Part shown: positions 5,547 through 43,093 of the stretch, one piece after another | Layout of the letters: each line of letters starts with the position of its first letter | Position numbering within the stretch: the stretch's first letter is position 1 | Virus record (IMG/VR): IMGVR_UViG_3300024309_000003 | Span: 1 to 43,156 of that record | DNA: 43,156 nt | Reading direction: 5' to 3' (one strand) | Source of the DNA: a virus | Taxonomy: Duplodnaviria; Caudoviricetes | Translations under genes and position numbers: made by a program | The notes under the pieces: generated by a model | What the model was told of the DNA's origin: nothing | Database searches by the model: none | What the model saw: only the letters and a program-made list of their open reading frames with translations

Positions 5547-6722
5547 TTACTCCATGTCAGCCGCATCGGCGCGGCGGCGGGTTTGGCGGGTGGTGGAAGC
5601 GGGGGCGGGGGCCGGCTGGCGCTGAGGCTGTCGGTCCTCGGGCTCGAAGGGCAGGCCGTCATCGACGACGCCGTCGAGCTCGTTCAGGCGGCGCTCGTAG
5701 GCGGCCTGAAGTTCGGCGGCGCGCGCGGGGTCGCAGTCGCGGATCTCGTCGGCAGCGAGGAGCAGGACGTCGTGATCCGTGGCGCGTTGGATGCTGGCCA
5801 GGACCTTGTCGGCGTCCAGGTATTCAGGGGCCGGCGGGGTGGTCGGGTCGGGATCGGCGGCGGCTGGCCCACCAGCGTCCGTCGCGGCGGCCTGGTCGTT
5901 GCTGCCGTCGTCCTCGTCACCGTCATCCATGGGCGTGATGTAGTCGCCTTCCAGGACGTTATCCAGGGCCTGCGACCGGCCGACAGCGTTCAATTCATCC
6001 AGTGCGGCGGCGCTGGCCAGCTCGATCGACACCGGCAGGTACTTCACCAGGCGGCGCAGTACGGTCTTGCGGCCCATCTCGGCGTAGTGCTGGCCCCATA
6101 CCGTTGAGCGCTTATCCTTGGCGAATTTGTAGTTCTGGCTGTTGTCGCGGATCTCATTGATCTGCTCGGCGCTCATGACCTCGAAGGCATGGCCGCCGCC
6201 CACCAGCTTGGCGACCGCATAGAAGGCGATGACCGGGCCACGCGCGCCCATCGTGGGCTTGTGCGTCAGCGTTTCGTCCAGGCCGTAGCTGTACTCGAAC
6301 TCGTCGTTCGCGCAGACCTCATGGGCGGCGATGCTCACGATCTGGCCGCTGCGCCGCGCCAGGTCGATCAGGCCCTTGTAGCCCAGCACGATCTGGACCT
6401 CGGTGACGCCCTTCTTGCGGTTGTCGAACGGGATCAGGTAGGCGTGACCCAGCGGCGTGTTCGGCTCCAGGCCCAGCTGCGAGCAGTGCACGACGGCACC
6501 CATCAGGGACTCGACGCTGCAGTTCATCAACTTCGGCGTGGTGCGCAGCGCGCCCAGGGCGATTTTCAGCATGCGGTCGGCACTGACATGCTTGGGCAGC
6601 ACCGCGGCGAGAGATCCTTTCTGGCTCTCGAAGAATTTCTTGACGTTGCCGATGCCAGCTTCGCGGGCGACCATCTTCGAGGTCTGCTTCAGTTCGGCAA
6701 GGGACGTGGGATTTGCGGTCAT
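5547..6722 (-). CDS. recT: RecT-family single-strand annealing recombinase
   Basis: LGLEP, GHAYLIPF, GYKGLIDLARRSG and EMGRKTVLRRLVKYLP motifs; acidic tail. Confidence 0.92.
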   Translation of the reverse strand: MTANPTSLAELKQTSKMVAREAGIGNVKKFFESQKGSLAAVLPKHVSADRMLKIALGALRTTPKLMNCSVESLMGAVVHCSQLGLEPNTPLGHAYLIPFDNRKKGVTEVQIVLGYKGLIDLARRSGQIVSIAAHEVCANDEFEYSYGLDETLTHKPTMGARGPVIAFYAVAKLVGGGHAFEVMSAEQINEIRDNSQNYKFAKDKRSTVWGQHYAEMGRKTVLRRLVKYLPVSIELASAAALDELNAVGRSQALDNVLEGDYITPMDDGDEDDGSNDQAAATDAGGPAAADPDPTTPPAPEYLDADKVLASIQRATDHDVLLLAADEIRDCDPARAAELQAAYERRLNELDGVVDDGLPFEPEDRQPQRQPAPAPASTTRQTRRRADAADME

Positions 6723-7236: not shown

Positions 7237-8144
7237 TCAAACACCTCCATTGCCCATGTCGGCAAACCAACCACTCCAATAGCGTTGGAATACGCCGGCC
7301 ATTGCCCAGACCGAAGACATGCCGCATACGTATCGAGATTCCTTCTGTACTTCGTGCGTCCGGTTTCCAAGCTGGCTTCGTCAAGCATGACCGCCGAGGC
7401 TGCGTACGGATATTCAGTCTCTACGGCGAGAAAAATGAACCCCAGGACTTCGACGTTGGCCGCCATTGCATATCCGTCCGAGTAATAAGCAGCCTGGACT
7501 TCGTACCTCATGCGGGCGATCTGGCGGGCGAATTCGCCGGGCGAGGCGTTGCTGTAGGTCTTCACGTCCACCAGAATCACGCGCCGCTCTCCGGCGTCGT
7601 GCACCCAGTCCGGCCGGCACCTGCACAGCACGCCCGTCACCGGGTCGCGCCAATAGGCGGACACCTCAGGGCGGCCGTTGGCCAGCGCATCACGGATGTC
7701 GGGCAGGCGCAGCACGCTTTCGGCCTGGCGCAGGGCGGTCTCGCGCTGGGCGTGCGTGATGACCGTGCGGCCTTCGTTGGCCGCCAGACAGTCGCGCCAC
7801 CAGGCCATGGCCATCATGCTGTCGGCTGACGGGTTCTTGGCGTTCCATTGCGCGCTGGTGGGCTTGCGCGGCGCGTCCGGCGGCAGCGTCACGTAGCGCC
7901 GCTCGAACTCGGCGGGCTCCAGGATCGCGCAGTGCGCGAGGTGCCCCACCAGGCGCGCCGGCGTCTCGTCGTCGGCCTTGGGCGGCCGGGCCGGGTCCAG
8001 ATATTCGGCGAAGTAGTGCGCGGGGCTGCGCTCGATCAGGTCCAGGCCGGTTTTGCTGATCGCTGTCGTGTCAGCGTGGTAGGCGTCGATGTCCAGATCA
8101 GGATGGATGCCGATCAGATTGACGGGTTCGGTGACGGCGTTCAT
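7233..8144 (-). CDS. RecE/exonuclease VIII-like PD-(D/E)XK nuclease (DUF3799-like)
   Basis: ISKTGLD..RSPAHY, CRCRPDW, DVKT, YEVQAAYY; adjacent to recT. Confidence 0.88.
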   Translation of the reverse strand: MNAVTEPVNLIGIHPDLDIDAYHADTTAISKTGLDLIERSPAHYFAEYLDPARPPKADDETPARLVGHLAHCAILEPAEFERRYVTLPPDAPRKPTSAQWNAKNPSADSMMAMAWWRDCLAANEGRTVITHAQRETALRQAESVLRLPDIRDALANGRPEVSAYWRDPVTGVLCRCRPDWVHDAGERRVILVDVKTYSNASPGEFARQIARMRYEVQAAYYSDGYAMAANVEVLGFIFLAVETEYPYAASAVMLDEASLETGRTKYRRNLDTYAACLRSGQWPAYSNAIGVVGLPTWAMEVFE

Positions 8145-13443: not shown

Positions 13444-14013
13444 ATGCGTAGCCTGTCGCAGACCCCGATCGGGATCCTCCGCGAGGAGATTGCCGACTAT
13501 CGCCGAATCCACCAGCTGTCCCGCGAGACCGTGGCACAGTCTATCGTCGAGGCCCACGAGGCCCTGGGTGCCGACGCCTCGACCGGCATCCGGTTCGAGC
13601 CCAAAACGCTCGACGCCTTTGAACGCACCAAGGTCAATGCCGACCGCGTTTTTCGCTGGCTCGACGACAGCACCAAGGACAACAACCTGCTGCCGGCCAA
13701 CTTCCTGGTGTCGCTGCTGGCAGGCCTGCCCGACGACGTCCGGCGGCGCGCGCTCGATCGCATCCTGCTGCCGCTGGGCTTCGCCGTCCGAGCCCTGGGC
13801 GAGGAGCAGGGCGGTGCACCGGTTTCCCCTCACGGTGTCGCCGCGCTCATCCGTGAGCAGAGCGAAGCCGCGGCAGCTGCCACCAGCCTGCTTGGCGAGC
13901 ACGGGCCTGGCGCCCTGGCCGACGCCCGCCGTGAAGTTGCTGAGGCCGTGGATATGGGCCAGAAGGTGCTCGTGCAGATCGAAGCACAGATGGCGGCGGA
14001 GGCGAGGGGATGA
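13444..14013 (+). CDS. CII/YdaT-like regulatory protein
   Basis: Position after cro; NADRVFRWLDD...LLPANF..SLLAGLP motif. Confidence 0.6.
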   Translation: MRSLSQTPIGILREEIADYRRIHQLSRETVAQSIVEAHEALGADASTGIRFEPKTLDAFERTKVNADRVFRWLDDSTKDNNLLPANFLVSLLAGLPDDVRRRALDRILLPLGFAVRALGEEQGGAPVSPHGVAALIREQSEAAAAATSLLGEHGPGALADARREVAEAVDMGQKVLVQIEAQMAAEARG

Positions 14014-14831
14014 TCACGCGCCCGATCGTTCGCTACCACGGCGGCAAGTGGCGGCTGGCGCCCTGGATCATCAGCCACTTTCCCGCGCACCGCGTCTACG
14101 TCGAACCGTTCGGCGGGGGGGGCTCCGTGCTGCTGCGTAAGCCCCGATCTTATGCCGAGATCTACAACGACCTGGACGGCGACATCGTCAACCTGTTCCG
14201 GGTCGCGCGCGACGACGGTGAGCGCCTGGCGCTGGCCTGCGAGCTGACACCCTTTTCCCGGGCCGAGTTCGAGGAATCCTACCTGCCTGCGGATGATCCT
14301 TTGGAACGGGCCCGGCGCACACTGGTGCGTGGCTACATGGGGTTCGGCTCGGCAGCCAGTACCTTCCAAGTCAGTGGTTTTCGCGCAAAAAGCCAGCGCT
14401 CGAACACCACCGGCGCACACGATTGGATGAACTATCCGGACTGTCTGCGCCAGATTATCCAGCGACTGCGGGGTGTTGTGATCGAGTGTCGCGATGCTGT
14501 GGAGTGCATGCGCCAGCACGACAGCCCCCAGACACTGTATTACGTTGATCCTCCCTACGTGCATAGCACTCGTCAACTGAGAACCAGATCGCCGGCGTAC
14601 CGCTACGAGATGACCGACGAGCAACACGAGAAGCTGGCCGGCAACCTGCGGGATCTCGCGGGTATGGTGGTGGTCAGCGGCTACCGCTGCGACCTCTACG
14701 ACCGCCTCTACGCGGGTTGGCAACGGATCGACCGAGCTGCTTATGCCGACGGCGCGCGGCCGCGTGTCGAGTCGCTTTGGCTGTCGCCCAACATCCGCAC
14801 GAACAGCCTGTTTCGGCAGGAGGCGGCGTAA
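14010..14831 (+). CDS. Orphan DNA adenine methyltransferase (D12/Dam class)
   Basis: YHGGK, YVEPFGGGGSV, YNDLD, YVDPPY. Confidence 0.92.
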   Translation: MITRPIVRYHGGKWRLAPWIISHFPAHRVYVEPFGGGGSVLLRKPRSYAEIYNDLDGDIVNLFRVARDDGERLALACELTPFSRAEFEESYLPADDPLERARRTLVRGYMGFGSAASTFQVSGFRAKSQRSNTTGAHDWMNYPDCLRQIIQRLRGVVIECRDAVECMRQHDSPQTLYYVDPPYVHSTRQLRTRSPAYRYEMTDEQHEKLAGNLRDLAGMVVVSGYRCDLYDRLYAGWQRIDRAAYADGARPRVESLWLSPNIRTNSLFRQEAA

Positions 14832-18451: not shown

Positions 18452-18529
18452 GGTGGGGTAGCGCAGCCAGGTCAGCGCGTCGGGCCCATAACCCGAAGGT
18501 CGGAGGTTCGAATCCTTCCCCCGCAACCA
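18452..18529 (+). tRNA. tRNA-Met(CAT), initiator-type
   Basis: Full cloverleaf, anticodon arm TCGGG-CCCATAA-CCCGA with three G:C pairs, 1:72 mismatch, GGTTCGAATCC, encoded CCA. Confidence 0.93.
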
Positions 18530-41157: not shown

Positions 41158-41657
41158 TCGCCGCTGCACTCAAGGCCCTGGCCGGCTGGCGGGGCTACGC
41201 GGCGGCGGCTGTGGTGGGCGGGTTGATTCTGGGCGCCGTCGGCGTGACTGTGACGCGCTGGTACTACAGGGCAGAGATCGCCGGCATGGAGCGTGACCAG
41301 GCCCAGCAAATAGCAGACGCCCAGGCGCTGGCCAGGGCAACAGAACAGCGCCGTTGGGCGGCGCGAGAGGGAGTTATCAATGATGCCAAAGAACAGGCCG
41401 CCGCAGCGGCCGCTGATGCTGATCGTGCCCGCGCTGCTTCTGAGCGCCTGCGCCAGCAAGTCGCCCGTCTCCGTGCGGGCTCCGGAGATTCCGCCGCTGC
41501 CGGCCGAGGCCAGGGTCAGTCAGGTGCCGACACCCTCGATCTGCTCATCCGGCTGCTCAGCGGGCTGGACGACGCTGGTCGAGACGTCAGCCGATACGCT
41601 GACCGACTCCGAATAGCGGGGCTGGCGTGCGAGCGGGCCTACGAGTCGCTGCGGTGA
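41154..41657 (+). CDS. Inner-membrane spanin (Rz-like, DUF2514-like)
   Basis: N-terminal TM, coiled coil, YADRLRIAGLACERAY. Confidence 0.85.
   Translation: MIAAALKALAGWRGYAAAAVVGGLILGAVGVTVTRWYYRAEIAGMERDQAQQIADAQALARATEQRRWAAREGVINDAKEQAAAAAADADRARAASERLRQQVARLRAGSGDSAAAGRGQGQSGADTLDLLIRLLSGLDDAGRDVSRYADRLRIAGLACERAYESLR
41380..41616 (+). CDS. Embedded outer-membrane spanin lipoprotein (Rz1-like)
   Basis: Alternative frame inside Rz; lipobox LLLSAC; Pro-rich; GAGGGAG SD. Confidence 0.8.
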   Translation: MMPKNRPPQRPLMLIVPALLLSACASKSPVSVRAPEIPPLPAEARVSQVPTPSICSSGCSAGWTTLVETSADTLTDSE

Positions 41658-41669
41658 TCTTGACGCGGT

Positions 41670-41753
41670 AAAAAATAGCCGCCTGCAGGCGGCGGCCATA
41701 TTTTCCCCGAACAATGAACTCAGAGTTTCAATCCACGCGTCGAAGCGCGAAAC
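41670..41753 (-). ncRNA. Solitary type I-C CRISPR-like repeat plus spacer-like segment plus terminator (crRNA-like RNA / Racr candidate)
   Basis: GTTTCGCGCTTCGACGCGTGGATTGAAAC (41753..41725), 25-31 unique nt, then GCCGCC-tgca-GGCGGC-TATTTTTT. Confidence 0.7.
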
Positions 41754-41756
41754 CAA

Positions 41757-41785
41757 AGCATAAAATCATTGCGCACTCGGTGCAA
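41757..41785 (-). promoter_or_regulatory. Sigma70 promoter of the repeat RNA
   Basis: TTGCAC-17-TATGCT, predicted start about 41751, at the repeat hairpin. Confidence 0.6.
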
Positions 41786-42113
41786 GAGTGGCGATGACTT
41801 GGGCGGCGATCGTGCGCCGCCAGTCCTCTTCCGTGCCCGGATACCATGCGGGCGTGCGCACCGCGTGGTAATCGTTGGTCCAGGTCGGAGGCTCGCGCTG
41901 GATGTCGGCCTCCATTCGGCCGGTGGGGCTTTGGTAGACGACCGCGTACCAGGTTGAGGTCTCTGTCGCGCCGTTTGTCAGATCGATAGCCATGGTGCTC
42001 TCCACTTTATTGGTGATCCAGTCGGTAAGCCGCATGCCCGCGGCCCGGCTCTCGCGCACCCAGCGCGCCTTGGTGGCGGCCGGGACGCGCAGATGAATGA
42101 GGGCGTCTGTCAT
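41766..42113 (-). CDS. RHH-domain fusion protein, 115 aa; anti-CRISPR candidate
   Basis: IHLRVPAATKARWVRESRAAGMRLTDWI ribbon-helix-helix; ATGA-coupled; internal GGAG-ATG at 41993. Confidence 0.6.
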   Translation of the reverse strand: MTDALIHLRVPAATKARWVRESRAAGMRLTDWITNKVESTMAIDLTNGATETSTWYAVVYQSPTGRMEADIQREPPTWTNDYHAVRTPAWYPGTEEDWRRTIAAQVIATLAPSAQ

Positions 42114-42523
42114 ACGCCGTCCTGCAGGCGCATGCGTGCTTGCAGCTCGTCGTACTTGCGCTGAGCGGCGTGACCAGCCTTGATGCTGGCCTGGTACTCG
42201 ACCCACTCGGGATGTGCTTCGATCCTGGCGCGAGCGGCCATGATCTCGTCGTAGCGGTCTTGCATGAGGCCCAGGCGCCAGATCGCACCAGCCGCACCGG
42301 CGGGGGCCTGGGCCTTTTCGGCGGCGGTCAGCGGGCGGATGGAAACATCACGGTGGATCTCGTCGCCGTAGGTGAGGTCGATGTCGATATGGCGGCGGCC
42401 GGTGTCGCCGCTGACGTTGGATTCGACGTCCTGGAAGTGTTCGGCCGACAGTGTGAACTCGACCTTGACGGTCTTGCCGTTGTCGATCCAGGTGACGGTT
42501 TCGGTGGAGATGGTCTGGTACAT
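42110..42523 (-). CDS. Hypothetical protein, 137 aa; anti-CRISPR candidate
   Basis: AGGA SD; first gene under the operator-containing promoter next to an Aca4-like gene. Confidence 0.6.
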   Translation of the reverse strand: MYQTISTETVTWIDNGKTVKVEFTLSAEHFQDVESNVSGDTGRRHIDIDLTYGDEIHRDVSIRPLTAAEKAQAPAGAAGAIWRLGLMQDRYDEIMAARARIEAHPEWVEYQASIKAGHAAQRKYDELQARMRLQDGV

Positions 42524-42592: not shown

Positions 42593-42622
42593 ATAATACT
42601 ATCGTTTAGACGATAGTGTCAA
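42593..42622 (-). promoter_or_regulatory. Strong promoter with inverted-repeat operator
   Basis: TTGACA-18-TATTAT; ACTATCGT-ttag-ACGATAGT (42598..42617) fills the spacer. Confidence 0.8.
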
Positions 42623-42630
42623 ATAGGTAT

Positions 42631-42840
42631 TTACCCTATCTCATAGGCCTGTTTGATCCGTGCGTCAGCGTCCCGCAGCTGCACAACCGCCCGGGCGACA
42701 TTGCTCGTTGGACAGCCGGTTTCCCGGGCCGCGTCGGCCTGCTGCTCGCCAGCCACCAGCACCAGCCTGGCGGCGGTCAAGATCGGTTTGCTGTGCATCC
42801 GCAGGAGCGAGGCGAGGGCGTCGAATTGTGCGTCGGTCAT
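42631..42840 (-). CDS. aca4: TrfB/KorA-like HTH repressor, Aca4-like
   Basis: MT..QF.ALA.L.R...AARLVLV.G...DAAR.TG pattern matches Aca4 as I recall it; extended -10 TGaTAGCAT 6 nt before ATG suggests a leaderless mRNA. Confidence 0.7.
   Translation of the reverse strand: MTDAQFDALASLLRMHSKPILTAARLVLVAGEQQADAARETGCPTSNVARAVVQLRDADARIKQAYEIG

Positions 42841-43029: not shown

Positions 43030-43093
<64 letters not shown>

Follow-up and report, generated by a model that had tools for sequence, protein, structure and literature searches.

The host elements CreR and CreA have, in the available part of the study describing them, a degenerate repeat, an intact handle and a PAM-flanked match of about 15 nt near a cas promoter, and type I-C members are among those predicted there (10.1101/2023.03.10.532045). 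RNA anti-CRISPRs of phages include the Racrs, for example the type I-C unit RacrIC1, described in a paper whose accessible text also assigns crRNA processing in type I-C systems to Cas5 (PMC10651486). Racrs act through sequestration alone, according to the accessible part of a preprint on a further class, the Cas-repressing RNA anti-CRISPRs (Cracrs), for which the same text gives a criterion of identity to the spacer part of a host CreA or CreR at nine or more PAM-proximal bases, and reports 219 predicted candidates, type I-C members included (10.1101/2024.10.29.618823). The tests in that text cover types V-A, I-E and I-F, with type I-C represented by prediction only (Neisseria is the named example), and Castellaniella, the genus considered below, is not mentioned in the preprint's main text (10.1101/2024.10.29.618823). 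Both the architecture and the mechanism discussed here have already been described, for Cracrs (10.1101/2024.10.29.618823) and for RacrIC1 (PMC10651486), and the phage unit reported below would be a new example. A literature search found no paper on this element; Table S2 of the Cracr preprint may already list it. Nine text files of the Racr supplements contained no match to the genus, the family or the phage repeat (the full tables of solitary repeat units may lie outside these files).

The phage unit lies near one end of the window (the whole 43,156-nt stretch of viral DNA analysed) and, judged by its sequence, is a candidate member of the Cracrs. Like these, as far as the available text of the preprint describes them, it is a phage-borne repeat-like unit with a spacer-like part and a terminator, its spacer is similar to a host CreR, it is linked to acr-type genes, and its apparent two-unit relative recalls Cracr arrays, in which each spacer suits another variant of a single subtype (10.1101/2024.10.29.618823); it differs in that its agreement with the closest host unit is interrupted at positions 4 and 10 and that the promoter site was not seen in our searches. 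Set against the criterion of at least nine bases, the phage unit matches at 13 of 15 positions in total, its unbroken run being shorter, and the passage of the preprint giving the criterion is silent on which of the two counts. The likeness to RacrIC1, in the accessible text, lies in a solitary type I-C prophage unit placed directly after an acr-type gene, possibly in one transcript, and the phage unit falls within the formal definition of a solitary repeat unit given there (PMC10651486), with one relative (X7) appearing to hold two units. In contrast to Racrs, however, its stem is shortened, it ends in a terminator of its own, and its spacer-like part is akin to regulatory units of the host. 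It shares a degenerate repeat and an intact handle with the host CreR and CreA elements, as characterized in the available text (10.1101/2023.03.10.532045), and two host genomes (G024 and G031) hold such units; unlike these, the phage copy is in a prophage, apart from cas genes, and would act in trans, for the phage.

The unit and its prophage setting

A sequence-only reading of this DNA had proposed a minus-strand gene for a crRNA mimic, consisting of a promoter, a solitary repeat, a spacer-like segment and a terminator, with neither a second repeat nor cas genes in the window. Sequence inspection located all of the parts on the minus strand of positions 41670..41785 (Table 1). The repeat–spacer–terminator feature is real: the terminator hairpin (41699-41675; nine pairs, six of them GC; GC core 41693-41678) was also called by a scanner, the handle is the sole one on either strand of the window, and no cas family was found among the 58 window ORFs scanned against PHROGs. 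The promoter was borne out in part, its two boxes being present but weak and uncalled by the scanner. By base composition, the 11-nt handle would be expected 0.006 times in the window and the stem base plus handle (15 nt) 6 × 10−5 times, and the 8-mer ATTGAAAC occurs a single time, both strands counted. The stem-loop is shortened compared with Castellaniella array repeats, and the spacer-like part is 25-31 nt long. An Rfam search of the window returned tRNA and no other family. A viral CRISPR mini-array against rival viruses has at least two repeats and a spacer that fully matches another mobile element; this candidate was rejected, given the single repeat in the window and no match in phage or plasmid records, where sensitivity to short matches was limited.

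Table 1 Features of the repeat unit and the adjoining cassette, in window coordinates
Feature	Position	Strand	Remarks
-35 box TTGCAC	41785-41780	-	17-nt spacing to -10 box; inside last codons of orf115
-10 box TATGCT	41762-41757	-	Seen in the sequence
Weak sigma-70-like promoter candidate	41757..41785	-	7/12 consensus; uncalled by scanner
Shortened repeat stem-loop	41736..41751	-	Canonical 4-bp register with 6-nt loop; a shifted 7-bp register competes
11-nt type I-C handle TGGATTGAAAC	41725..41735	-	Identical to array-repeat 3' end at 5/5 Castellaniella I-C loci
Spacer-like part, positions 1-15 (predicted guide seed)	41710..41724	-	Resembles host creR-like units
Spacer-like part from position 16 (variable tail into terminator)	41694..41709	-	Differences in X6 and X7 begin here
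Intrinsic terminator-like hairpin and T run	41670..41699	-	Overlaps end of spacer-like part; faces lysis genes
orf115	41766..42113	-	Ribbon-helix-helix-like domain at N terminus, resembling that of AcrIF25; C-terminal part without assigned function
orf137	42110..42523	-	Small protein; candidate anti-defence gene by position only
Strong cassette promoter	42593..42622	-	11/12 consensus; palindrome between -35 and -10
KorA/TrfB-family helix-turn-helix regulator	42631..42840	-	Pfam PF16509 above cut-off; PDB 7bbq, E = 9 × 10−4
3' part of tRNA-like sequence at prophage end	43030..43089	+	Likely attachment site

The predicted transcript measures 82-85 nt from just past the -10 box to the T run, and the predicted RNA from the handle to the T run 67 nt. 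The RNA may arise from the unit's own weak promoter or, because the unit starts 14 nt past the stop codon of orf115, as the 3' end of a cassette transcript reading through from the promoter at 42622-42593. In type I-C systems, Cas5d cuts just before the handle. Folding predictions gave -4.6 kcal/mol for the canonical 4-bp stem, in which the handle is free, and -9.2 kcal/mol for a shifted 7-bp register, predicted to be more stable, in which the first four bases of the handle are paired; the predicted fold of the phage RNA pairs both the start of the handle and the seed internally. The two host creR-like units described below are also predicted to pair their first handle bases, unlike the array repeats. 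Runs X3 and X6 are labelled as RNA, yet are represented by contigs, which show no RNA ends and give no evidence of transcription.

In a PHROGs scan of its ORFs, the window showed genes for head, tail, replication and lysis; it represents a temperate phage, the head region of which is 72% like relatives of Pseudomonas phage phi297. The phage is likely to infect Castellaniella, because close relatives of its endolysin (87-90%) are present in five Castellaniella genomes and the named relatives of the cassette proteins come from the same genus. It also encodes a tRNA-Met(CAT) (18452-18529) and two DNA methyltransferases (731-1738 and 14010-14831).

Within this prophage, the repeat unit is the last element of a small anti-CRISPR-type cassette flanked by the lysis genes and the end of the prophage, an accessory slot of a mobile element, apart from any CRISPR-Cas locus. 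Residues 3-46 of the neighbouring orf115, for which 467 relatives were found (two being full-length matches at 84%), match the ribbon-helix-helix of AcrIF25 (PDB 8jdh_A, E = 5 × 10−13), a domain that, in the available text, is dispensable for Acr activity and possibly regulatory (10.64898/2026.07.27.740549). Racrs often lie within 1 kb of an acr gene; near the phage unit, orf115 matches only this dispensable domain of AcrIF25, and orf137 is without a known match. The orf137 family is small (17 representatives at E ≤ 0.001), its predicted model is confident (pLDDT 87), and comparison with PHROGs, PDB sequences and a fold search gave no clear match (best Z 5.0); orf137 is a candidate anti-defence protein. 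The regulator at the head of the cassette may be Aca4-like; what the analysis showed of the aca4-like cassette in the earlier description is the KorA/TrfB Pfam match and the AcrIF25-like domain in the gene next to the unit. The palindrome in the cassette promoter is probably the operator of an Aca-type repressor.

The tRNA-like stretch at the prophage end, which we infer to be part of a tRNA-Ser, also terminates a related prophage (L132). The cassette slot is variable, with seven related prophage cassettes holding other cargo and none of the seven containing the unit. In L135, the same slot holds an AcrIF11-like gene (6207-6662; PDB 8dwq, E = 3 × 10−44; 6kyf, E = 0.004); a small helix-turn-helix-like ORF comes next. 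A partial handle beside type-II TA-like cargo in L133 was put aside as unrelated to the unit. In L130 and L301, the sequence of the cassette-promoter palindrome differs and its palindromic symmetry is kept.

Host type I-C loci and related units

The sequence-only reading had proposed looking for a host type I-C system and comparing its repeat. Such a system is present in the genus, with type I-C cas5d in 5 of 34 Castellaniella-genus genomes and the phage handle identical to the array-repeat end at every one of the five loci; the PF09704 profile gave no match in the first five genomes, and no G024-type Cas3 was found on plasmids. Two of the five loci (G024 and G031) hold a solitary unit with a TTC-flanked match inside its own locus. 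At G024, a locus found via cas5d, independently of the phage spacer-like sequence, the unit is upstream of cas3 and divergent from it, and matches its own TTC-flanked site over 15 nt with a single mismatch (position 6); this site precedes the start of cas3 by about 65-80 nt. The G031 unit matches its own TTC-flanked site over 17 nt, with mismatches at positions 6 and 12 only. In sequence, both units fit the CreR/CreA pattern. Castellaniella I-C systems have met this phage group, because an array spacer of G031 matches window positions 19537-19503 at 30 of 34 positions, with a TTC PAM. Two further features of these host loci were observed: the TTC-flanked site of the G031 unit (L269:7690-8030) overlaps the unit's own predicted promoter, and cas5 is immediately preceded by a hydrophobic ORF of 39 codons (7889-8008) served by a divergent promoter, an arrangement that resembles a toxin module under CRISPR repression in a type I-C locus; and at G063 (L289:900-1300), several eroded repeats form a degenerate I-C array directly upstream of cas3.

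The phage spacer-like part is identical to the G024 unit at 18 of 29 positions in an ungapped comparison, whereas the best of 2,710 control array spacers reached 15/29 and none reached 16/29 (spacers sharing the five initial letters on which the metagenome scan was based were excluded from the control set). The stem, 5' region and terminator of the phage unit differ from those of the G024 unit, while the handle and seed are kept. Compared with the G024 promoter site, the phage guide has mismatches at positions 5, 9, 10, 11 and 13.

A closer host unit was found where phage and host sequences co-occur. The phage cassette was present at 0.9-1.0 of words in four runs (X1, X2, X3 and X4, with X1 and X2 being one sample, possibly that from which the window came), and X3, which may likewise be a source, was identical to the phage over the compared stretch. 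Each run also contained a G024-like cas3-cas5-cas8c-cas7 contig (about 83% identity to the G024 locus; 8.5 kb in X1-X3, 11 kb in X4) and an 18-nt piece at the creR handle, which was assigned to the cas contig because their depths were equal (24.1, 176, 60.4 and 26.5 for X1 to X4). The spacer of this co-occurring unit, read by eye on the minus strand from the 30 letters beside the 18-nt piece, matches the phage spacer-like part at 13 of the first 15 positions in X1, X2 and X3 (differences at 4 and 10, the longest matching run from the PAM end being 3 nt) and diverges after position 17, followed by the start of a G024-like hairpin. When the 3 alignment-fixed nucleotides are left aside, the match is 10 of 12, and 0 of 2,741 control spacers reach 10. 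On these comparisons, the spacer-like part is non-random. If the co-occurring cas3 promoter equals its creR, the phage guide would have two seed mismatches. The depth of the phage was lower than that of the cas contig (23.1 versus 60.4 in X3; 4-6 versus 26.5 in X4), a difference equally compatible with partial lysogeny and with phage and cas contigs from different organisms.

The unit persists beside the ribbon-helix-helix gene in X6 and X7, each from another study. A 257-nt contig of X6 covers 41710-41914 with three differing letters (one listed at 41848), and its alignment ends exactly at spacer position 16, with positions 1-15 kept. Record 7 of X7 covers 41635-41744. Among its listed changes, which leave out those less than about 30 nt from a contig end, all affect positions from 16 on or the terminator, so that conservation of positions 1-15 is seen there only in part. 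Record 8 of X7 comprises the ribbon-helix-helix gene, the -10 region and two repeat copies with 39 other letters between them, and this relative appears to carry two units: the spacer between the repeats, in an orientation deduced from the difference table, matches the G024 unit at 14 of 20 positions (10 of 16 free positions, p about 0.003). The promoter-candidate region is covered by the X6 contig and, from 41768 down, also by record 8 of X7.

Searches for targets and homologues

Several searches were made for a site that the phage guide could recognize. A PAM-plus-seed scan of five 20-kb I-C loci found no cas-linked site. The 34 genus genomes, with one mismatch allowed, gave 13 matches (compared with 4 for a backwards control), none of them inside the five cas loci by coordinates, with context viewed for 6 of the 13. 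Two exact matches were found in 401 family genomes, neither near a repeat handle, and 18 cas3 loci (8 from the family and 10 further order-level loci) contained no guide target. The cas3 promoter of the co-occurring locus did not align to the G024 locus or to the phage unit and was unreadable there. No self-target was found in the window. Thus, the match between seed and host cas promoters or phage databases, with a 5'-TTC PAM, that the earlier reading had proposed to look for did not emerge as a cas-linked or phage match in the genomes and records searched.

The unit itself was absent at three mismatches from 371 family genomes (nearly the same draw as the 401) and had no match in 50,697 phage records and 72,556 plasmids, a search in which short matches lie near the detection limit. 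A metagenome scan, whose pattern was unable to match a G024-type stem, covered 49 of 64 parts, and 127 of its 136 matches had three or more handles. Contigs aligned to the phage unit did not include the host cas contig.

Interpretation

We consider it probable that the unit is a type I-C Cracr, the RNA of which would be loaded into host Cascade, repress cas3 and also serve as a decoy. An RNA of about 67-85 nt would be transcribed from the unit's own weak promoter or by read-through, and Cas5d would cut it just before the handle. The processed RNA would then assemble into host I-C Cascade and, by pairing through about 15 PAM-proximal bases, direct it to the cas3 promoter of a G024-type system, at a site flanked by TTC. 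Such pairing (about 15 bases) would be too short for DNA cleavage and would leave Cascade parked on the promoter, with repression of the cas3-cas5-cas8c-cas7 operon, while the phage RNA would compete with immune crRNAs for Cascade. We infer all of these steps (transcription, cutting, Cascade assembly, binding, repression and competition); what was observed is the layout of the unit, its resemblance to two creR-like units of the host, the TTC-flanked match of one of these before cas3 and the presence of the unit in relatives, in an anti-CRISPR context given by the AcrIF25-like domain next to the unit and the AcrIF11-like gene in the same slot of L135. The earlier reading of the unit as a crRNA mimic with an anti-CRISPR role, which had offered a decoy, silencing of cas genes or attack on a rival element, gains support from the similarity to host creR-like units, and among the three options the evidence favours cas silencing because the spacer-like part resembles creR-like units at Castellaniella-type I-C loci.

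It is possible, if doubtful, that the unit is only a decoy, in the manner of a Racr: a captured host creR, the guide of which no longer fits the promoter, could still tie up Cas5d and Cas7. The seed mismatches (two relative to the co-occurring host unit, five relative to the G024 site) are consistent with this, as are the failure to find the guide target in the loci and genomes searched and the place just past an acr-type gene, which recalls RacrIC1, located 11 nt after acrIC5 in the accessible text (PMC10651486). A decoy needs no particular spacer, however, yet X6 keeps positions 1-15 while the tail changes, and X7 appears to hold a second creR-like spacer; the similarity to host creR units likewise argues against a sequence-free tail.

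We regard it as very unlikely that the unit is a passenger, that is, an inert fragment of a host creR that came to lie in a variable slot of the prophage and is poorly expressed or misfolded. The weak promoter, the burial of the cleavage site and seed in the predicted folds and the absence of the unit from all seven related cassettes would fit a passenger, but the selective retention of handle and seed relative to the G024 unit, the persistence of the unit beside the same gene in X6 and X7, and the predicted mispairing shared by the host units all speak against it. Least probable is a Cascade target other than a cas promoter (the promoter of a CRISPR-linked toxin or defence gene, a rival phage or the phage itself): the G031 unit aims at the divergent promoter region before the hydrophobic ORF, so toxin-type targets may exist in the genus, and Cracrs against toxin promoters appear in the available text of the preprint (10.1101/2024.10.29.618823), but the phage guide resembles the G024-type unit, the site of which directly precedes cas3, and neither the window nor, within the detection limit for short matches, the phage and plasmid records hold a match.

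Building on the Cracr reading, we tentatively suggest an arms race over type I-C guides, in which paired creR units and cas3 promoters of the G024 clade would drift together to escape Cracrs, and phages would keep or stack variant guides. The G024 unit, the co-occurring unit, the phage guide and the spacer of the two-unit relative would then represent a single guide family in four states, with the two seed changes of the host being an escape caught in progress.

Although the underlying principle is already published, a type I-C Cracr at this locus would provide a compact test case for a subtype that, in the available text of the preprint (10.1101/2024.10.29.618823), is so far only predicted. 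Natural host promoter variants, matched and mismatched, would serve as built-in controls, and the system would reveal how much divergence from the host regulator a viral guide tolerates with repression retained and whether hosts escape via joint change of creR and promoter.

Other viral type I-C repeat units

Scans of viral sequences returned further type I-C repeat loci: 10 in one scan, all with other spacers; 119 in a scan of 47 of 64 parts, none with the repeat stem; and 5 in a further scan, none with the spacer of the phage unit. Another viral solitary I-C unit (L299:530-660) has a promoter-like region, a 5-bp stem, an intact handle and a terminator, and the first five letters of its spacer-like part are shared with that of the phage unit (13/29 identity). 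A two-unit, short-stem I-C mini-array with a terminator, adjoining a tyrosine integrase gene on a small element, was observed in L148, L164, L188, L230, L239 and L252 and is a candidate Cracr array. In other viral contigs (L002, L003, L004, L006, L007, L008 and L009), I-C repeat units with complete stems occur singly or in pairs.
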